Below are positions 1-35,197 of a stretch of DNA of 55,815 nucleotides, piece after piece; positions within the stretch are counted from its first letter, which is position 1, and every line of letters starts with the position of its first letter. Under the pieces are notes generated by a model. That model ran no database searches. It was given only the letters and a program-made list of their open reading frames with translations, and had not been told where the DNA came from. The DNA comes from a virus (taxonomy: Duplodnaviria > Caudoviricetes), in IMG/VR virus record IMGVR_UViG_3300032291_001093, positions 1 to 55,815 of that record; one strand, given 5' to 3'. A program made the translations under genes and the position numbers.

Positions 1-123
1 CGCAACCTGCACGTCAGGGGCTACTACAACCTCATTAATGGAACCAACATTTTCAACCGCAGTTTTTGTTGTACCCGCTACAGAATCCGCTACAGCCTTA
101 GCTTCTTGGTCTGTTGCTCCAAG
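1..123. repeat. Terminal direct repeat, copy 1 (circular overlap)
   Basis: 1-123 is identical to 55693-55815 and an ORF reads in frame across the join. Confidence 0.97.
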
Positions 124-1695
124 GCTTTTAGCATCCACAAATGCGGTTGTAGATAAGTCACCAGATTTTTCTGTACCTGTTTTTGCTGTAGAGTTATTTA
201 GGCCAAGTGTTTGATTTAAGGATGCAGTAATTCCATATTCTTTATCAAGATCTTTTGCAAATTGTGTTCCCGCCGCTTTTCCTCCAGCCATGAATGCGTT
301 TTTCAAAGCTACATCACCACTTTGTCCGCTAGCAATGGACTGAGCATATGCTGTAGCAGAACTCATCAAAGCATTGCGCTGAACGGCTGTTAATGATGTG
401 TCCGTTAGATATTGATTGCCAATATTGGATATTGCACCCGACACGGCACCTACAGTAATACCTTTGCCAATATCTCTGCCAGATATACCCGCAGAAATAC
501 CCCCTAAAGATGCGTTTCTTGCTACATCTTGTAATAGCTTGCTGTCAATTGATTTAATCGCACTTGATAAACCTGTGTAATCAGCAATTCCGGCAGATAA
601 ATAGCTTGCTACCCCACCTTGGAGCACTTGCGCTGGCGTAGCCCCCCTAGCCAAATCTAACGCAGCTTTAGAAGCAAGTTGTACTGCGATTGATGAGCCA
701 CCAGTTGCAACAGCTAAAGCAATATCTGGAATAATACCAAACTGTCTTATGAATGCACCAAGACTATTGTCTCTTTCCGCCGCTACAGTTGGATTTGCAG
801 AACCATCTGCTCTCCAAGATGCATAAGCAACGGTATCTTTGGGTAATGCTGTTTTATAGCCCCCTTGACCATCTGGGACAAGCGGCCACACTTGAGTACC
901 AGTAAAGTTTAGAAGATTCCCATCTCTATCATAACGAGCATATATTCCATTGCCATTGCTAACATCAACGTTAGCATACGGCATCTGCTCCTCGCCAAAA
1001 TCTAAAGTGCTAGGATCAACTTTTTTAGGAGCCTTATCTAAAATATCTTTGCCCAAACCAAGTATAGATTCAATTTCCGACCTGTTGGATGAGTTTTGCA
1101 AAACTTTGGTGTAAGAATCTTGATCTAATTTTCCAGAATAAGCCAAATCCAGCGCAGTTTGTCGCCCAAAGTTACCGGGCGTCAACTCCCCGCTGGGCGT
1201 AATAGATTTAAATAAATTTAGATATGGTTTGTTTGGATCGTCATAGTCTGCCCCATATAGCTCTCGGCCCGCAGCCTCTTTAAATTGCGCCGCCTCGTTT
1301 GCATCAATAGTATTGCCAAATTGTTGCCGCCAATGCGCTAATCCCTCCGGGTCTGGCGCTCTTTTTAATACATCGTTATATAATTTAACTATTGGGTCTT
1401 CGCTTGAAGTAGCTGTATTTGAGGGTGTAATACCTTGCGTTGTGCTTGAAATTTGAGCAAGGGGTGCTGCACTTGAGGATGTTGTGTCAACCACGGAAGG
1501 AAGGGCGCTAGAGGGGGGTTTATAACCAGTTACAGCCAACTCTTTCGCTGCTTCTTGCCTAAACTGTTCTATTTCGTTTGCTTCAATGGTTGGGCCAAAC
1601 GCTTGTGCCCAGTTTTGAGCGCCCCCCACATCAGGCGCTCTACCCAATATTTTTTGATATAGGCTATCTATGTCTTTAATTGAGTTGTCGATCAT
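1..1695 (-). CDS. 5' part of a ~1233-aa putative internal virion/ejection protein, continuing across the origin into 55692..53686; N-terminal DUF4214-like repeats
   Basis: Absent from the ORF track because it runs off the end. ATG at 1695 (MIDNSIKDIDSLYQKILGRAPD) follows AAAGGT; read by eye, the frame is open to position 1 and joins ...VVVAPDVQVAGNYMPE of the 53686..55704 ORF. Confidence 0.88.
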   Translation of the reverse strand, partial: MIDNSIKDIDSLYQKILGRAPDVGGAQNWAQAFGPTIEANEIEQFRQEAAKELAVTGYKPPSSALPSVVDTTSSSAAPLAQISSTTQGITPSNTATSSEDPIVKLYNDVLKRAPDPEGLAHWRQQFGNTIDANEAAQFKEAAGRELYGADYDDPNKPYLNLFKSITPSGELTPGNFGRQTALDLAYSGKLDQDSYTKVLQNSSNRSEIESILGLGKDILDKAPKKVDPSTLDFGEEQMPYANVDVSNGNGIYARYDRDGNLLNFTGTQVWPLVPDGQGGYKTALPKDTVAYASWRADGSANPTVAAERDNSLGAFIRQFGIIPDIALAVATGGSSIAVQLASKAALDLARGATPAQVLQGGVASYLSAGIADYTGLSSAIKSIDSKLLQDVARNASLGGISAGISGRDIGKGITVGAVSGAISNIGNQYLTDTSLTAVQRNALMSSATAYAQSIASGQSGDVALKNAFMAGGKAAGTQFAKDLDKEYGITASLNQTLGLNNSTAKTGTEKSGDLSTTAFVDAKSLGATDQEAKAVADSVAGTTKTAVENVGSINEVVVAPDVQVA

Positions 1696-1728
1696 ATTAT
1701 TTACCTTTTTTAGACCAGCCCCACCAGG

Positions 1729-2622
1729 CTACCTTCCTAACACGTCTTTATATAGTTTATATATTGGGTCTTCAACTGGAAATCTGTTTGCCTTGGTAGT
1801 GGGGTATGCGCTAATATCGGGAATACCAATCAAGTCTATGATTGGATAAGGCGTAGGATTTAGGGGTAATAAATCCAACTCTGTTTTTGCGGCTTCCACA
1901 AATTGTGCTATTTCGTTTGGATCAATGGTATCTCCAAACTGTTGTTTCCAATATGCTAAACCAGCATCATCAGGGGCTCTACCCAATATTTGTTGAAATA
2001 GATCGTATACTGAGTTTATGTTTGTAGGGGCAGGCATTTTCGGATAATCAATCCTTTCCATTAATGGCCCCTGAAATCTGCTCGGATAATCGCGCCTTTC
2101 AGGGAAAGGATTTTGCAATCTGTCGTAGCCCGGATTTACAGGATTAATTGGAAAGAAATCCCTTTGCGGAGGAACACCTATTTCCCTTAATGGCTCCTCC
2201 TGTCCTTCGTATATGGGCATTGCAGAAACCAATTTTTCAGGGTAAGGCATAGGATTTAGAGGTAATAAAGCCAACTCAGGAGATGCGGCTTGTTTAAACT
2301 GCTCCATTTCGTTTGGGTCAATGGTGTCGCCAAATTGTTGTTTCCAATATTCTAAACCCCCTTCATCAGGAGCCCTTCCCAATATTTGTTGATACAAATC
2401 AGATACTGAGGTTTGATTATTAGGCGATAAAGAAGATAAGGGTGCCGCAGCATTTTTAGCAGCCAACTCTGGAGCAGCAGCTTGTCTAAACTGTTCTATT
2501 TCTGTTGGGTCAACAGTATTGCCAAATTGTTGTGACCAGTATTCTAAACCCCCTGTATCAGGTGCTCTTCCTAATATTTCTTGATATAGGCTATCTACGT
2601 CTTTAATTGAATTTTCGATCAT
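1729..2622 (-). CDS. DUF4214/S-layer-like repeat protein; paralog of the giant protein's N-terminus
   Basis: Three LYQxILGRAPDxxGLxYWxQQFGxTxDPxE repeats plus a truncated fourth; RBS AAGGGA. Confidence 0.8.
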   Translation of the reverse strand: MIENSIKDVDSLYQEILGRAPDTGGLEYWSQQFGNTVDPTEIEQFRQAAAPELAAKNAAAPLSSLSPNNQTSVSDLYQQILGRAPDEGGLEYWKQQFGDTIDPNEMEQFKQAASPELALLPLNPMPYPEKLVSAMPIYEGQEEPLREIGVPPQRDFFPINPVNPGYDRLQNPFPERRDYPSRFQGPLMERIDYPKMPAPTNINSVYDLFQQILGRAPDDAGLAYWKQQFGDTIDPNEIAQFVEAAKTELDLLPLNPTPYPIIDLIGIPDISAYPTTKANRFPVEDPIYKLYKDVLGR

Positions 2623-2634
2623 ATCATTTCCCTT

Positions 2635-2907
2635 CTATGTTCTAGATGCTACTGTATTGACAAGTGCTTCAGCCCATTCTTGCCAATCACTGTAATTGTC
2701 TGTCATTGGAATAGCCTCGTTTGCAAATACGTCAATTGCTCGTATGCCATTCCCCCACATTTTCCAATCTGTCTGCTCGTTTGGAATCTCTAATTGTTGT
2801 GCAGCATACAGCTCGCACATAAGGCTTGCCCAAGAATCAAATGTATGAAATCTTGGATCGTAAACTTGACCTGGGTTTGGGATGCTAGTAGCCACGTACA
2901 TCTCCAA
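2635..2907 (-). CDS. Small putative virion protein (Trp-rich)
   Basis: 90-aa ORF directly after the nozzle-like gene; true start may be a few codons later. Confidence 0.7.
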   Translation of the reverse strand: MEMYVATSIPNPGQVYDPRFHTFDSWASLMCELYAAQQLEIPNEQTDWKMWGNGIRAIDVFANEAIPMTDNYSDWQEWAEALVNTVASRT

Positions 2908-5086
2908 TGTCTGCGTTTAACAATATTCTTCCCAATTGGTAGTCTCCGCCCACTTGGTTAGATACAAGCTTTATCCTTAACTCCCTACGCTGCTCTTTCA
3001 TATCAATCTTGTTAGTAGTGGAGTCAAATACGTAAGGAACAGACTGTGCATCATCTGATTGTGCATAAGGACGGCCTGTGATGTAAAGGGTCATATTCCC
3101 CTCTAGCAAGAAATCAGGCTCTACCCTCTCTAGTCTAAGCCACTTGTTCATTCCCGTCATAGCGGGTTCTGAGGGGCCTCCAGAGACTAATCCAAGGTCA
3201 TTGGTCTCAAAGTAGCTTTCAATAGCTGTAACAGACTGTCCGTTGATGGCGTCTACCCCAAACTCATGTTGAAGAATCTCAATCCTATTTTGAGGTGTTG
3301 AGAACGTCAAAGATGTAGAAGCCGTTGCGGTAGCCGCAGCAGACATTTGGATGCCTTGTAGATACAAAGCTGTAACAGGAATAGAGAATCCTGCACCAGC
3401 TCCGCCAAGCTGTGTATTGGACGCACTTAAAACATCACCTACTTGATAACCTGCGCCTCTAGCTGTTAAGGTAACGGCGGTTACGGCACCACCAGAAACG
3501 GTCACAGTAGCCTTAGCTCCGGCACCGCTGCCTCCAGTAAGGTTGACGTTGGTGTAGGTTCCGTTTACGTATGCAGAGCCTCCAGTAATCGCACCAAGCG
3601 TTTTAATGTTGCTGGTTGTGATTGCGGTCACATAGTTGCCAACGGGAATTCCAGCCCCAGAAATAATCAATCCAAGCTCAACTTGAGTGTTGTAAGTGTC
3701 TAGATAAAGAAACGCACTTCCGTTAACCGTATTGAATGTGTCTATAAACACAGTCTCTTGTGCAAAGGTTTGCCAGTTGGCTTGTACGGGAAATCGAAAA
3801 ACTTGGGAGAAGTAACCAGCAGAGCGGCGAGCGCCTAGAGCTTCGCCAGCGTCATACCAAATGTTTTCTCGGACGTTATAGACAATAGCATCAGTGCATT
3901 CAGTAGCATCTCCGCGAGGATAGAACCACCAAATCTCCCCAAAACGCGGAACTTTAGTAACCCAAACTTTTTGACGTTGATCATAGTTCAGGTTGTCAAA
4001 AAAGTAGTTCTGATTCATGGTGTTGGGAATTTCCTTAACAACACCGTTGTACATCAAGAAACGATCAACCCCGCACCAATAGTAAATACCATCGTATTCA
4101 ATTGCAGACTGGCTAGACAGAATAGAAGACTGCGAGCTAATGATGTCATAACGCCAATACTGAACCGGAGTTCCTGTTCCGCCGATGTAAGACACGCGGA
4201 TTAGGCTATCAAGGCTCCAAAACAGCCCAGAAGGCGCATTTGATCCACCCCTGACGGGTAACCCTTGGACAATCTTTCCTGTAGCTACGTTGGTCGCATT
4301 AGCGTCTGCGGAAGTCCAATCCTGAGCGTTGCCAGCAGAGCAGTTCTGAATCAACCCATTATTTCCATAAACAAACACGTAAGGGTGCAGAGTCACCACA
4401 CCACCAGACACGCTGATGTTGTTGTTAAAGGTGGCTACAACTACTCCTGCGGGCACTACGTTGGACAGAGTTACATTGGTTGTGGAAACCGAAACCACCG
4501 TAGTGTTGGCTGGAATGCCTGTCCCTGTAATGGTTTGTCCAGCAGCAATCAGAGGATTGGAGGCTGGAATCGTAACTACAGCAACTCCAGTAGATGTAAT
4601 TGTGTCATTAAATGTTCCAATCTGTGACATGGTCAAGCCATTGATGTCACCAATTAAAACTGGAGTATTAAAGTCGCTGTCAATTGCGGCAAGGTTTTGC
4701 CCGGGGTGGGCAAGCAAAGACTGAACACCGGCCCCAGCAACGTCATAAAACCCATCAAATTGCCACAAATTTAGGTCTGACGCCGTAAAGTTTGACAATG
4801 CAAAGTTTCCAATTCCAGCACCAACGCCATTATCATCAATAGTGAGCACTTGCAAACCATTGTTATAACCGCTGAAGATGTAATTGAAAGAATTCTGAGC
4901 GTTAACCCAGATGCCTCTTGATGGTCCTGTCATTTGATCGGAAATCACACGATAGCCGCCCATTTTTCTAGGACGACCGCGTTGAAACCTTACCCAGCGG
5001 CCATCATTGTAAAATTGCTTATCAAAGATGGTTCCGTCCCTTTGGACGCCGGGCTTGGTATCAAGAGCAAAGACTTTCTGCGTCAT
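2885..5086 (-). CDS. Tail tubular protein B/nozzle-like protein with inserted beta-rich domains
   Basis: 733 aa; N-terminal WVRFQRGRPRKMGG, and FGEIWWFYP and VYNVRENIWY propeller-like segments; lies upstream of the ejection genes. Confidence 0.65.
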   Translation of the reverse strand: MTQKVFALDTKPGVQRDGTIFDKQFYNDGRWVRFQRGRPRKMGGYRVISDQMTGPSRGIWVNAQNSFNYIFSGYNNGLQVLTIDDNGVGAGIGNFALSNFTASDLNLWQFDGFYDVAGAGVQSLLAHPGQNLAAIDSDFNTPVLIGDINGLTMSQIGTFNDTITSTGVAVVTIPASNPLIAAGQTITGTGIPANTTVVSVSTTNVTLSNVVPAGVVVATFNNNISVSGGVVTLHPYVFVYGNNGLIQNCSAGNAQDWTSADANATNVATGKIVQGLPVRGGSNAPSGLFWSLDSLIRVSYIGGTGTPVQYWRYDIISSQSSILSSQSAIEYDGIYYWCGVDRFLMYNGVVKEIPNTMNQNYFFDNLNYDQRQKVWVTKVPRFGEIWWFYPRGDATECTDAIVYNVRENIWYDAGEALGARRSAGYFSQVFRFPVQANWQTFAQETVFIDTFNTVNGSAFLYLDTYNTQVELGLIISGAGIPVGNYVTAITTSNIKTLGAITGGSAYVNGTYTNVNLTGGSGAGAKATVTVSGGAVTAVTLTARGAGYQVGDVLSASNTQLGGAGAGFSIPVTALYLQGIQMSAAATATASTSLTFSTPQNRIEILQHEFGVDAINGQSVTAIESYFETNDLGLVSGGPSEPAMTGMNKWLRLERVEPDFLLEGNMTLYITGRPYAQSDDAQSVPYVFDSTTNKIDMKEQRRELRIKLVSNQVGGDYQLGRILLNADIGDVRGY

Positions 5087-32330: not shown

Positions 32331-32516
32331 TTAACCTATTAGGTTATCAATGTCCAACTGGCTGTCTATCCATGCTGACAGGCTCTCGCACAGTCTCTCA
32401 ATAGCTTCCCCACCGTCGATAGGATCGTTGAGCAGCTCTCTCAATGCTCTGTGGTCAGCCACTATCTCAAACCTGCCATCACATAAGTGAGTGGTCACTA
32501 TCTCATCATACTGCAT
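32331..32516 (-). CDS. Small acidic hypothetical protein
   Basis: Likely start MQYDEIV at 32516, overlapping the TerL stop. Confidence 0.55.
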   Translation of the reverse strand: MQYDEIVTTHLCDGRFEIVADHRALRELLNDPIDGGEAIERLCESLSAWIDSQLDIDNLIG

Positions 32517-34761
32517 AGGGGTTCTCTTTCCTCTTCGCCATTCCGCTGTCATAGTAATCTTCTTCGTCATAAGCCTCTGGGGCTGGGCCATCAATGTCAA
32601 TCCATCCAGCATCACGCAGGAAGCGCAGGGCTTGGGAGGTCGAGTCTACAAAGTCATCATGGGTTGTATCAGGAAACGCACAGAGCTGGCTCAGCAACGG
32701 CTCGACCCAATCCTTCACGTACCGTGGACGTTGGCTGCTCTCAGGCATCCAAACTCTGCCTCTAGCGAACAGCGAGGATATGACGTTCAAGCGCTGCATC
32801 TTGTCAGCCCGGCCAGGGTTGTACGCCCTTACAGGCAGATGCGCCCTCTGCAAGTCTTGGATCAAGCTGATACCTGCTGACTTGTCCTCGATCAAGATCA
32901 AGTCTACCCTCTTACGGTCTCGCCCCTCTCCATACACCACCTCGTACTCATCCAAGACCTTTGGGCGCAGATCAGGGTACTGTAGCCTGTCCTGCCAGCA
33001 GTCGATCAATAAAACGCTCATAGGGCCATCTAGAGGCTTGAATACGCCCCATGTGGATGCAGCAGTAGGGTCGTTAACCGTCTTCTCGCTAGTAGCCACA
33101 TCGTAGCTCTGCAAGATGTACTCAAACTTAGGAAACTCTTTGTTGTTGGGCCACAACCGGATCATGTCCCGCTTGATGATGCCAGACTCTTCAGGGTCGA
33201 TGATCTCAGCGTGGATCTCCTGCCGACCTAGCTTTGTACCTTCGTACTGGAGGATCTGCTTCTGAAAGCTTGGGGCAAGGTTGGCTAGATTGGTGTAGGT
33301 CGAGGCTGTAGTGACGCAGACATCGTCCCCATCTCTGCCTACAAGGTCTACGATCAGGTCTTTGGGTCGGGGGGTGGTTGTACACAGTATGCGGGTCTTC
33401 TTGCCTAGGCGCACGGAGAATTGGATCTGATCCCAAGCTTCTTGCAGGTAGTCCCAAGCGGCAAGCTCATCGCAATTATGAACAACTATGCCATTAGCAA
33501 TAAACTCATGCTCCCCCTCAACTGTCAGGTTGTATGTTAACGAGTTGGGCAAGCGTTCGGCGTGGAGTACCTCCATTTGCTTCAGTGCGATAGGTTCGTA
33601 CAGTTGACTTGCCATTACAAGCTCGGCAGCAATACTTTTGAAATCGTTTGACGGCTGTGTACTCTGATCCGCAGACAAGGCAGTTTCTTTGCTCTGGAAT
33701 GAATTTGTTATTTCTCCATTTCTCAGTGCAATCTTTTGAGCAAAACTTGCCAGCTTCTCCAGCAGAGCAAGAGATGAAGCCTTGGCCGCAATGAAGGCAC
33801 GTTGCAGACTTTGGCTTGCGAAGCGAAGCAAGGGTTTGGGCTGCTGCAAGCTTTTGCTTTTCTGATCCAGCTCGACCTGTTGAATGGAGGCTGTGATGGT
33901 CTCCCCTAGGCATTGCCACGAGATTGGACGGATCGTTATTGGTTTTATCTTCGTCTCTATGGTGCACAACCCATCCTTCGGGTATGGCTCCATGATGTTG
34001 CTCGTATATAACTCTGTGGGCATATTTGCCGTTAACGCGTTTGTAGCCACCCATACTTGATCACCAATCTTGATATCTCCAGCGGGAATCCACTGGTCTT
34101 CCACAAGTATCGGATGGTCTGAGGTAATTGTCAAGCTCGTAACACCACAATCCATTCGCACAAGATCATTTGTATTGCCAGAAACAGATGAGGCTAAGAC
34201 CTTGCGTGGCCCATGGCGAGTCATGACCATATCGCCAACAAAAATGTTCTCTATAGGTTTGGATGAACCGTCTGCCATCCATATCTTTGTGCCAGGGGTG
34301 CAACACCAAGCACCGTGCCATTGTCCACCACGGAAACGCTCAGGCTCGGATGCTGGGATGCCTTTAATAAGTGAGCCGTTCACCAGCCGTATCTCGTGGT
34401 AGCTCTTGTTGTAGTCTGCTATCAGCTCTTTGGGAATGACATTGAGCAGTCCTGAGTCACCCTCAAAGCATGTACCCCTTACGTCTGAGCTTGTGGGGGC
34501 AGCTACTAACCAGCGAGTGTTGGGCTGCTTCCATGCCCACCATCCAATCTGCTCAGCAGCAGTTCTAGTCTTACCGGCTCCGCGGCCCGCCAACAGTAGC
34601 CATATGCTGTACCAATCCCCATGGGGGAGGATCTGATGCTGGTGAGCCTGAGTCAACCACCTCATCCTCCATGCGCTTGCTATTTGCTCTTCTGTACTAA
34701 GCGTGGCAAACGCACTTTGGAACTTGGGGTCTTTCAGCGTCTCAATCAGTTGTTCCTGCAT
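32506..34761 (-). CDS. terL: Terminase large subunit containing an intein (751-aa precursor, ~474 aa spliced)
   Basis: Walker A AGRGAGKT, Walker B HGAW/CDE split by the insertion, TTTP motif III, nuclease SYD, IEDKSAG, HDDFVDS. Confidence 0.96.
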   Translation of the reverse strand: MQEQLIETLKDPKFQSAFATLSTEEQIASAWRMRWLTQAHQHQILPHGDWYSIWLLLAGRGAGKTRTAAEQIGWWAWKQPNTRWLVAAPTSSDVRGTCFEGDSGLLNVIPKELIADYNKSYHEIRLVNGSLIKGIPASEPERFRGGQWHGAWCCTPGTKIWMADGSSKPIENIFVGDMVMTRHGPRKVLASSVSGNTNDLVRMDCGVTSLTITSDHPILVEDQWIPAGDIKIGDQVWVATNALTANMPTELYTSNIMEPYPKDGLCTIETKIKPITIRPISWQCLGETITASIQQVELDQKSKSLQQPKPLLRFASQSLQRAFIAAKASSLALLEKLASFAQKIALRNGEITNSFQSKETALSADQSTQPSNDFKSIAAELVMASQLYEPIALKQMEVLHAERLPNSLTYNLTVEGEHEFIANGIVVHNCDELAAWDYLQEAWDQIQFSVRLGKKTRILCTTTPRPKDLIVDLVGRDGDDVCVTTASTYTNLANLAPSFQKQILQYEGTKLGRQEIHAEIIDPEESGIIKRDMIRLWPNNKEFPKFEYILQSYDVATSEKTVNDPTAASTWGVFKPLDGPMSVLLIDCWQDRLQYPDLRPKVLDEYEVVYGEGRDRKRVDLILIEDKSAGISLIQDLQRAHLPVRAYNPGRADKMQRLNVISSLFARGRVWMPESSQRPRYVKDWVEPLLSQLCAFPDTTHDDFVDSTSQALRFLRDAGWIDIDGPAPEAYDEEDYYDSGMAKRKENPYAV
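33475..34305 (-). mobile_element. Intein (277 aa, TerL residues 153-429)
   Basis: Block A CCTPGTKIWMADG, block B TSDHPI, block F TYNLTVEGEHEFIANG, block G VVHN followed by Cys+1. Confidence 0.95.
33518..34054 (-). CDS. HNH homing endonuclease with C-terminal zinc fingers, in an alternative frame inside the intein
   Basis: YAHRVIYE..HGAIPEGWVVHHRDEDKTNNDPSNL...HHSLH; CLHC/CSKDC and CLVC/CCRAC; SD GGTGA 6 nt before the ATG. Confidence 0.9.
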   Translation of the reverse strand: MGGYKRVNGKYAHRVIYEQHHGAIPEGWVVHHRDEDKTNNDPSNLVAMPRGDHHSLHSTGRAGSEKQKLAAAQTLASLRKPKSATCLHCGQGFISCSAGEAGKFCSKDCTEKWRNNKFIPEQRNCLVCGSEYTAVKRFQKYCCRACNGKSTVRTYRTEANGGTPRRTLAQLVNIQPDS

Positions 34762-35197
34762 TCTGTCGAGTGAGTTCGATGTTGTCTATCAGCGCGGAGA
34801 TAAGCCCCTGAGCCTCTACCTTCACCTCTACGGGGTTCTCTTTATCCCCACTGAGCTTGACGTTCTCTCTCCAGCTATCAGGGAAGCGTGCAGCCATTGA
34901 TCTGCCATACAGTGATGCGTTGATGTTGCCGCTGTCCTTAGTCCCTACAAGGTAAGTTTGGCCCTGATCTTCCCACCACATTTGTGAGTGAGTGTTCGCT
35001 AACTCTAAGGCGTGACAAAACTCTTCGTGCTCATCACGTAGTCTGCACAGTGTTCTGTAAGAAATGCCTAAGCTTCCCGCTATGTAGTGGAAGCTCTTAC
35101 CCTGCTTACCTAGCTCTATAGCTATGTCGCAGAATGATGGGTCGTACTTTGTGGGTCTGCCACCTAAGTTAGTGGTTACTTCTTTTGTCTTGGCCAT
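34742..35197 (-). CDS. terS: Terminase small subunit
   Basis: GRPTKYDP plus HTH, WWE, directly upstream of and overlapping terL. Confidence 0.8.
   Translation of the reverse strand: MAKTKEVTTNLGGRPTKYDPSFCDIAIELGKQGKSFHYIAGSLGISYRTLCRLRDEHEEFCHALELANTHSQMWWEDQGQTYLVGTKDSGNINASLYGRSMAARFPDSWRENVKLSGDKENPVEVKVEAQGLISALIDNIELTRQNAGTTD

Follow-up and report, generated by a model that had tools for sequence, protein, structure and literature searches.

A Walker B intein in a phage terminase with a nested, out-of-frame HNH_3 gene: a probable composite mobile element

Introduction

Inteins are normally taught as one polypeptide, in which an in-frame endonuclease domain lies between two splicing lobes. 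The gene of the large terminase subunit (terL, product TerL) in the tailed-phage record IMGVR_UViG_3300032291_001093, referred to below as the window (the whole stretch of DNA analyzed, 55,815 bp, a complete virus record with direct terminal repeats), raises the question of what an intein is when the two functions lie in different reading frames. TerL is interrupted at its Walker B motif by an intein whose own frame contains only a motif-less linker between the lobes, while the other protein product predicted from the same strand of this region is a HNH nuclease. Results of our analysis indicate, with a probability that we put at about three in four, that this is a composite mobile element, consisting of a Walker B intein and a nested same-strand gene of a HNH_3/zinc-ribbon homing endonuclease (HEN) at offset +2.

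Results

The intein and the nested nuclease open reading frame

At the junctions, the precursor of 751 amino acids (aa) reads ...QWHGAW/CCTPGT...GIVVHN/CDELAAW.... The insert begins with Cys (C1), contains the block B signature T61-S-D-H64 and the sequence NLTVEGEHEF, and ends with H276-N277, followed by a +1 Cys; the columns of C1, T61-S-D-H64, H276-N277, and the +1 Cys are invariant in 13/13 aligned inteins. The Pfam profile Vint matches the precursor above its cut-off (3.8e-07). In the AlphaFold2 model of the intein, built from 13 aligned inteins, residues 1-89 and 237-277 have pLDDT (predicted local distance difference test) values of 82-94, and the linker between them (residues 90-236) values of 26-62. 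A Foldseek search with the confidently modeled part retrieved the Mtu RecA intein (E=6.8e-07) and the gp41-1 intein (TMt 0.84). The modeled lobes, the Foldseek matches, and the Vint score agree in indicating a Hint fold, and the insertion is in frame, within a conserved motif of its host protein, and precisely absent from homologues (77/80 nearest TerL). By its motifs and predicted fold, the insert is an intein of class-1 type, with Cys1, Asn, and Cys+1 at Walker B. The intact motifs and the essential role of TerL suggest that the precursor would be spliced.

The start codon of the nested open reading frame (ORF) lies 707 nucleotides (nt) downstream of the TerL start, which places it at offset +2, i.e., in the -1 frame. 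Its 178-aa product matches Pfam HNH_3 (PF13392) with E=2.5e-18 (65.9 bits vs. a cut-off of 24.8) and PHROG 15471, annotated as HNH endonuclease, with E=2e-29; Endonuclease_7 is not among its Pfam matches at E<=0.1. Residues H31, H32, D34, N39, N40, N44, H53, and H57 are invariant in both close and distant alignments of HNH proteins, so that the HNH_3 profile match is accompanied by a His-Me finger core. Two four-Cys clusters follow, the first of which is nearly invariant also in the distant alignment. In the AlphaFold2 model (mean pLDDT 74.9), residues 1-152 are folded into the HNH core and two strand-strand-helix Cys4 modules, while residues 153-178 score under 50. The top fold match in the Protein Data Bank (PDB) is the homing nickase I-HmuI (probability 0.98).

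The stop codon of the HNH ORF falls within the V-E codons of intein block F, 43 nt short of the intein end. The C-terminal tail of the nuclease, RTYRTEANGGTPRR (residues 151-178, positions 33518-33600), is almost invariant although predicted to be disordered (pLDDT <50), and its wobble follows the HNH frame through residue 165 and the intein frame beyond. Conservation of this tail may be owed to the nuclease, to the C-terminal lobe of the intein, or to both.

A first-pass annotation, made from the letters of the window alone, had proposed a 277-aa intein splitting TerL at HGAW/CDE and, in the -1 frame, a complete 178-aa HNH protein with two four-Cys clusters, a Shine-Dalgarno (SD) sequence of its own, a TGA three codons upstream, and a stop inside block F. 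All these elements were found where it had placed them: profile searches of the two frames give Hint in one and HNH_3 in the other, and the alignment with intein-free TerL homologues puts the insertion exactly at GAW/CDE.

Frame conservation and selection

With the HNH protein as query, 28 loci were retrieved from IMG/VR, 13 of which, with 52-95% identity along the whole protein, are considered here as close relatives. In all 13, the HNH ORF is open at offset +2 within an equally open TerL precursor frame of about 750-1080 aa, and the Walker B intein site is identical. Homologs do not accumulate stops in the HNH frame: no stop is present in either frame in these 13 loci, nor in the 55 contiguous loci of the wider census described below.

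Selection was judged from codon-position counts (mean pairwise change), and not from a formal dN/dS model, in ten sequences (the window, L005, L006, L007, L008, L010, L011, L013, L014, and L015), with L009, L012, L016, and L017 left out because they duplicate, or nearly duplicate, L008, L011, and L015. For TerL codon positions 1/2/3, the values are 0.21/0.14/0.55 (N-extein), 0.21/0.19/0.53 (N-terminal splicing lobe), and 0.21/0.14/0.51 (C-extein), as against 0.22/0.50/0.28 for the overlap. The peak at TerL position 2 means that wobble in the overlap is at the third position of the HNH frame. In the overlap, mean aa identity is 0.66 for the HNH frame and 0.42 for the intein frame. Wobble reverts to the TerL frame near HNH residue 166, from where on the C-terminal splicing lobe gains in importance. 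As judged by these counts, the data show the overlap to be under purifying selection on the HNH frame, as the first-pass annotation had expected, and relaxed on the intein frame, the TerL frame being kept only stop-free.

The intein frame had been described in that annotation as ~170 stop-free codons without motifs. This is true of the nearly 150 linker codons, which are motif-less and of low model confidence, and not of the last part of the overlap, since HNH residues from about 166 to 178 coincide with the conserved C-terminal splicing lobe and wobble is there back in the TerL frame. The term "overprinted", applied to the nuclease, is loose as well: there are two frames, but the HNH frame appears to be the constrained, older one, and the read-through of the intein its shadow.

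The number of stops to be expected in the TerL frame was estimated by synonymous resampling of each HNH protein with the extein codon usage of the same phage. Against 2.5-6.5 expected, 0 stops occur in the overlap in 10/10 sequences, with P(0) of 0.000-0.040 each; for the window, the expectation is 4.9 and P(0)=0.002, or P(0)=0.047 when synonymous codons are shuffled within the gene. The third frame contains 11 stops in the window and 6-14 across the ten sequences. The intein frame is that alternative frame of the HNH gene in which fewer stops are expected (2.5-6.5 vs. 5-12 in the other), and this lower cost may be the reason why offset +2 is the one seen.

The start region of the HNH gene

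The SD-like GGTGA of the window is formed by the Gly-Asp codons of the intein sequence ...IGDQVW, and the ATG overlaps the Trp codon; a TGA of the HNH frame is located at 34061..34063, three codons 5' of the ATG. The position of the ATG is shared by 10/10 relatives, in which it overlaps the conserved Trp codon of G-D-x-[VLI]-W (xxA TGG). A SD-like GGNGA(T) lies 6-7 nt 5' of it in 9/10 relatives, and L006 has GGCGAC. The HNH frame is closed by a stop one or two codons before the ATG in 7/10 relatives, window included, and a slippery heptamer X_XXY_YYZ is present in 1/10 (L006, AAAGGGC) and absent from the window. As the ATG and the SD-like motif are conserved, an upstream stop is present in 7/10, and a heptamer in only 1/10, independent internal initiation at the ATG is the simplest reading, in agreement with the preference of the first-pass annotation for initiation over frameshifting.

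Presence and absence of the element

Among the 80 TerL loci nearest to the window (the best 80 of at least 594 stretches), 77 are intein-free: 34 read W-C-DE, including seven with 97-99% C-extein identity to the window, and 43 read W-L-DE or W-A-DE. The full element is present in two loci and a mini-intein in one (L046). Of these 80 loci (L034-L113), 37 have Cys after HGAW, 41 have Leu, and 2 have Ala, and all three inteins of this set, as well as all Walker B inteins seen elsewhere, occupy Cys alleles; it may be that alleles with Leu or Ala resist productive invasion, or that the intein brought the Cys with it. The HNH is thus present sporadically, at a fixed site among close alleles, and is co-inherited with a putatively self-splicing element.

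In L046 (209-646), this Walker B site is occupied by a natural mini-intein of 146 aa, which has lost about 130 residues across the HNH core and has retained the ATG region and the C-terminal overlap. It shows that the linker is dispensable and represents a later stage of the homing cycle.

The exteins of the intein-free loci L034-L040 match the window at 402-429/456 and 883-896/966 DNA positions, more than those of the intein-bearing L005 (377/456 and 840/966). Nucleotide identity between the window and L005 is 0.919 in the intein and 0.824 and 0.870 in the exteins, and intein identity exceeds extein identity in close pairs. In 3/4 sequencing runs compared, a contig joins position 33471 to 34303, skipping exactly 831 nt, with short sides of 27-37 letters at these joints (X2 30, X4 27, X6 37); intein-bearing contigs occur in the same runs. 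This comparison used contigs and not raw reads, so that depth, transcript ends, and rare variants are not readable from it.

While the window contains one HNH_3, located in the intein, no HNH_3 was found anywhere in five complete intein-free relatives (56-60 kb, CheckV 100%; 0/5). Judging by these genomes, the HNH is therefore not needed for packaging in the phage group of the window. The pattern of presence and absence is what a homing element would produce, and losses by precise deletion may have contributed to it.

The HNH_3-Hint family and isolate phages

The wider family was surveyed by a profile-guided scan of IMG/VR, from which the best 80 of at least 488 HNH loci were classed with hidden Markov models (HMMs) of both Hint lobes built from the HNH_3-Hint family. 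The HNH is at +2 within one contiguous Hint ORF in 55 loci (44 distinct sequences) and in frame in none; 14 loci have the N lobe only, 7 are split, and 4 have no Hint nearby. In the 14 N-lobe-only loci, which the C-lobe HMM missed at E<=1e-3, frame openness was checked instead, and in 13/14 the Hint frame is open past a HNH at +2. The insertion site is W/CDE in 31 of the 55 contiguous loci and elsewhere in 24, about 15 of which, with flanks judged by eye, are at a D/H-rich motif like the intein site of phages Highwayman, TJE1, and LS06. Identity matrices of Hint and HNH are correlated (Mantel r=0.905, 0/2000 permutations as high), also among pairs with Hint identity <0.6 (r=0.71), which fits inheritance of the two as one unit.

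A tblastn search of GenBank phages revealed HNH relatives under a single long terL coding sequence (CDS) in four isolate phages, namely, Acinetobacter phage Highwayman, Tetrasphaera phage TJE1, Rhodobacteraceae phage LS06-2018-MD07, and Clostridium phage phiCDHM19, all nested at +2 (for phiCDHM19 by arithmetic on match coordinates) and unannotated. In the records OZ038341.1 (L001), HQ225832.1 (L002), OP947163.1 (L003), and LK985322.1 (L196), terL is annotated as one CDS of roughly 680-800 aa, and neither the intein nor the nested HNH_3 ORF is annotated. Further HNH ORFs that were scanned (L001-L004, L015) match only HNH_3 in Pfam.

In Vibrio phage 1.238.B (L004, MG592604.1), Hint is split into two halves, and the HNH gene lies between them. 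In positions 1-3377 of this record, the HNH_3 gene encodes 236 aa with three Cys clusters and overlaps both halves; an in-frame LAGLIDADG-like intein, recognized by reading of the translation, is present further upstream in the terminase region. Acinetobacter phage BP10 has a free-standing HNH homologue just upstream of the small terminase subunit gene (terS), and in PAE1 and CL2 such homologues lie close to where the genome starts.

The 1078-aa TerL of one IMG/VR locus (L014:1165-4398) contains two inteins, one at Walker B and a second near the C-terminus (305 aa, DDF/C...HN/CDAFSQ). Each has a HNH-like ORF at +2, the open frame of the second being 207 aa with the motif HH.D...NN..NL.

The coordinates of features of the window are collected in Table 1. 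The ORF that overlaps the TerL start may, by its position alone, encode the small terminase subunit.

Table 1. Features of the terL region of the window and the evidence for them
Feature	Position	Strand	Description	Evidence
TerL precursor CDS	32506..34761	minus	751 aa, stop codon counted in coordinates	Terminase_6N 3.2e-15, Terminase_6C 1.7e-07 (Pfam), phrog_38 1.4e-30
N-extein	34306..34761	minus	152 aa, ends ...QWHGAW	boundary from intein-free relatives reading GGQWHGAW/CDELAAWD
Intein	33475..34305	minus	277 aa, Cys1 (CCTPGT...) to ...IVVHN	motifs, intein-free alignment, contigs skipping 831 nt
N-terminal splicing lobe	34039..34305	minus	intein residues 1-89, blocks A and B, T-S-D-H	pLDDT 82-94, wobble at TerL position 3, Foldseek match to RecA and gp41-1 inteins
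Intein-frame linker	33598..34038	minus	residues 90-236, stop-free shadow translation of HNH gene	pLDDT 26-62, aa identity 0.42
C-terminal splicing lobe	33475..33597	minus	residues 237-277, blocks F and G, terminal HN	pLDDT 85-93, 96% aa identity past HNH stop
C-terminal splice junction	33472..33477	minus	HN/C (+1 Cys of Walker B CDE)	junction alignment with relatives
Putative internal initiation region	34052..34065	minus	GGTGA 34061..34065, 6-nt spacer, ATG 34052..34054	
HNH nuclease CDS	33518..34054	minus	178 aa + TGA, offset +2 vs. TerL (-1 frame)	HNH_3, phrog_15471, wobble at its own position 3
HNH_3 catalytic core	33896..34027	minus	residues 10-53, HH.D....NN...NL........H...H	Pfam and alignments
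First four-Cys cluster	33728..33799	minus	C86/C89/C105/C109	invariant in 10/10 close relatives; strand-strand-helix in model
Second four-Cys cluster	33617..33682	minus	C125/C128/C142/C146	invariant in 10/10 close relatives and in 10-row distant alignment
Upstream ORF	34742..35197	minus	151 aa, 20-nt overlap with TerL start	ORF list only

Discussion

Comparison with known systems

The out-of-frame HEN layout as such is already published, in preprints of 2025-2026. Gosselin, Arsenault, and Gogarten (2025, bioRxiv 10.1101/2025.01.02.630785) described 63 non-canonical HENs among 784 actinobacteriophage inteins, with the terminase among the four host proteins concerned, called the layout "rare", and proposed the capture of free-standing HENs by inteins; the first-pass annotation had rightly pointed to similar architectures in some inteins of actinobacteriophages. 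Those inteins and the one studied here have in common the same strand, frame 3 (offset +2), a HEN between the splicing blocks, an extein/intein frame that is open but unstructured across the HEN, and the large terminase subunit as host. The HEN there belongs to IPR004211 (endonuclease VII), whereas that of the window is HNH_3 with two zinc ribbons, a comparison made by the published description only. The hosts also differ: actinobacteriophages in that study, and here uncultured freshwater-type phages as well as phages of Acinetobacter, Clostridium, Rhodobacteraceae, and Tetrasphaera. An analysis of start sites, stop avoidance, or codon positions was not found in the portion of the preprint's text that was accessible.

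In our tblastn searches with the HNH of the window or of TJE1, no Gordonia or Microbacterium record was among the matches listed or the top genera named, and in the search with the HNH of TJE1 no PhagesDB-type actinophage was among the 60 rows listed or those genera. A link to the endonuclease VII-like inteins through the MuF inteins of Gordonia phages, found by tblastn with the N lobe, was rejected: Gordonia phage Nordenberg has an antisense LAGLIDADG-like ORF and not a frame-3 HEN. This MuF-like minor capsid intein (L194, MH976514.1, 1912-2622, minus strand) contains a 236-aa antisense ORF with the LAGLIDADG-like sequence FIDGEGT, and it corresponds to the antisense type as outlined in the 2025 preprint (bioRxiv 10.1101/2025.01.02.630785). 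The Caulobacter CcrRogue intein was rejected as an example of the same layout, as it has no HNH in another frame.

A cyanobacterial dnaX intein with a LAGLIDADG homing endonuclease in a +2 ORF was described by Phillips, DeSimone, and Gogarten (2026, bioRxiv 10.64898/2026.09.14.751524), with low omega in the endonuclease frame and relaxed omega in the extein frame. These authors prefer a secondary invasion of a mini-intein, call the layout a rarity, and credit Gorbalenya 1998 with its first proposal. The +2 ORF, the frame-dependent selection, and the coexistence of mini-inteins with intein-free alleles are shared with the element described here. The dnaX case, as presented there, concerns a LAGLIDADG enzyme in one cellular gene of one phylum, whereas here a HNH_3 enzyme occurs in a phage terminase, at at least two terL sites, and in other contexts.

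Arsenault et al. (Genes 2025, PMC11855218) described a HNH hidden out of frame in a mycobacteriophage DNA methylase, within its ShiLan insertion. It resembles the element of the window in the alternate-frame HNH ORF, the stop-free host frame, and the sporadic, homing-like distribution. However, the ShiLan insertion is described as lacking a splicing domain and is thought to be retained in the protein, while the window has intact Hint lobes; no ribosome-binding site was reported for the ShiLan HNH and leaderless GTG initiation was invoked, while the window has an ATG with a SD-like motif.

The fractured genes of Dassa et al. (2009, PMC2677866) are split inteins with a free-standing gene of a homing endonuclease (HEG) between the halves, the end of which overlaps the C-terminal intein part by 6-69 bp. 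A free-standing endonuclease gene inside an intein is the common feature, and this split form is also represented in the HNH family, by Vibrio phage 1.238.B and 7/80 IMG/VR loci. In fractured genes there are two host ORFs, trans splicing, and GIY-YIG or Vsr-like HEGs, whereas the window has a single contiguous ORF of 751 aa and is not of this type. The nickase I-HmuI (PDB 1u3e) of a phage group I intron has, as the HNH of the window, an N-terminal HNH_3-type ββα-metal core followed by DNA-binding modules; unlike the latter, it is intron-encoded and without Cys4 ribbons.

Taken by its structure, the element is a non-canonical same-strand out-of-frame HEN, with a complete HEN ORF under an open extein/intein frame, and its HEN is neither of the endonuclease VII-like (IPR004211) nor of the LAGLIDADG type. 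Since Pfam gives HNH_3 only, and since its hosts are environmental phages, we class it as a variant and not as a member of the same family as the published cases. In the literature searched, which extended neither to subscription journals nor to supplementary tables of the preprints, a HNH_3/zinc-ribbon nuclease in such a role was not found. Likewise, the accessible literature, taken without those supplementary tables, contained no occurrence of the layout outside actinophages and cyanobacteria, and in the texts searched we found neither the out-of-frame state as a rule for one family nor the start-site anatomy.

How the element may work and arise

According to the explanation that we favor, that of a composite mobile element, ribosomes translating terL would pass over the HNH gene in the TerL frame and produce the 751-aa precursor, in the intein of which a linker of about 147 aa, modeled with low confidence, would lie between the two Hint lobes. 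The Hint domain would excise itself and join GAW to CDE, by which the Walker B motif would be restored in a 474-aa terminase. Other ribosomes would start at the internal ATG behind the SD formed by the Gly-Asp codons of the intein and make the free 178-aa nuclease, which would nick or cut the intein-free terL of co-infecting relatives. Through repair from the intein-bearing copy, intein and HNH would spread together. With the two functions in different frames, the dosage of the nuclease would be uncoupled from that of the abundant terminase. Most likely, the element is a homing unit that is active or was so until recently, its functional steps being deduced from the features described above.

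Most likely, the layout goes back to a single old event, in which a mini-intein captured a free-standing HNH gene. The first-pass annotation had proposed such an invasion, and it is plausible in the light of free-standing homologues, such as that of BP10, and of the 0/80 loci with an in-frame HNH, though not proven. Its view of the layout as rare does not apply to the HNH_3-Hint family, where the layout is the rule.

A further-reaching and considerably more tentative idea, to which we would give clearly less than even odds, is that HNH_3-Hint elements form an old, obligately two-frame class of single origin, never fused in frame and widespread in tailed phages, which hops between terminase motifs and other genes, and in which the overlap itself is adaptive. 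The SD and the ATG would then be made of conserved intein codons (Gly-Asp ... Trp), ribosomes on terL would occlude or unfold the internal start and so tie nuclease output inversely, or in time, to terminase translation, and the intein would use that alternative frame of the HNH gene which is cheapest to keep stop-free.

Alternative explanations

The composite mobile element has several points against it. Every functional claim, whether on splicing, on internal initiation, on the activity and target site of the nuclease, or on homing, is inferred from sequence. The Pfam matches of the precursor to Intein_splicing (1.5e-07) and Hom_end_hint (6.6e-07) are both slightly under cut-off, the fold match of the nuclease to I-HmuI is weak (TM 0.26, E=0.011), and a search of PDB sequences with the HNH profile gave 0 matches. 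Neither of the two censuses, of TerL and of HNH loci, is exhaustive. The correlation of Hint and HNH identities could be produced by shared phage ancestry alone, and the higher identity of the intein in close pairs could in part be caused by double constraint rather than by transfer. In the tests of stop avoidance, the ten sequences are related, so that their P values are not independent and do not multiply, and the within-gene shuffle gives P(0) of 0.009-0.46 per sequence, which is weaker than the test with extein usage as the codons of the gene are themselves already adapted.

Against this background, it might be asked whether the HNH ORF is a decaying relic in an intein that still splices, the nuclease being not made or inactive and the element being inherited vertically and lost by deletion. 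Such a stage is predicted by homing-cycle theory, the mini-intein of L046 has lost the HNH core at the same site, and expression of the HNH is read from sequence features; but purifying selection with wobble at its own third position acts on the HNH frame down to 52% identity, catalytic and zinc-binding residues are invariant, the ATG and SD are conserved, stops are absent from 13/13 close relatives, and inteins are more similar than exteins in close pairs, all of which makes a relic unlikely. A role of the HNH for the phage rather than in homing alone, either as a terminase-associated packaging helper, as in HK97-like phages, or as a weapon against competitors, appears slightly less probable still. 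It would be in line with the free-standing homologues beside terminase genes (BP10) or near the genome start (PAE1, CL2), and with the need of HK97-type phages for HNH in packaging, which is mentioned in PMC3592412. However, complete intein-free relatives (0/5), the nearest TerL alleles (97-99% identical), and the mini-intein allele do without it, and the HNH moves together with Hint to several insertion sites.

A nuclease made as the C-terminal part of a fusion with N-extein and N lobe, through programmed -1 ribosomal frameshifting, is suggested by the HNH frame being exactly the -1 frame of TerL and by 3/10 relatives that have 14-22 open HNH-frame codons before the ATG, one of them (L006) with the heptamer AAAGGGC, so that a minor frameshift product is possible there. 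In the window, there is no heptamer and a TGA precedes the ATG; with the HNH-frame stop in 7/10, the heptamer in 1/10, and conservation of the ATG and SD-like motif, we rejected frameshifting as the general route and hold it to be very improbable as the source of the nuclease. Hardly any credence can be given to two compensating indels having displaced an originally in-frame HNH, for which only the general possibility of error in metagenome assemblies speaks: the same offset occurs in 13/13 close loci of other assemblies, in 55/80 family loci, and in four isolate phage genomes, codon periodicity changes frame at conserved points, and contigs from three other runs span the intein with 0 gaps and no indel inside 33475..34305. 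An assembly artefact is thus excluded as far as sequence data allow.

Conclusions

To a specialist, the architecture of the terL element is probably not astonishing; it is its commonness and uniformity that probably surprise. The layout is called rare in the preprints cited above, yet it is standard for one HNH_3/zinc-ribbon family (55 of the best 80 loci, 0 in frame). For genome annotation, it means that in isolate phages the nuclease gene has been missed and the terminase reported as about 280 aa too long. For the evolution of inteins, it supports the order in which the splicing domain was first and the nuclease was captured later, with free-standing, nested, split, and deleted stages all visible in one HNH family. 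It is also a clean natural case of overlapping genes, in which one frame only avoids stops and the constraint switches sharply at both ends. For engineering, the places at which cargo is tolerated are indicated by the natural mini-intein of 146 aa and by the linker, which is dispensable. If the overlap should itself turn out to be adaptive, the HNH_3-Hint family would be a natural model for the regulation of a selfish nuclease by overlapping frames.

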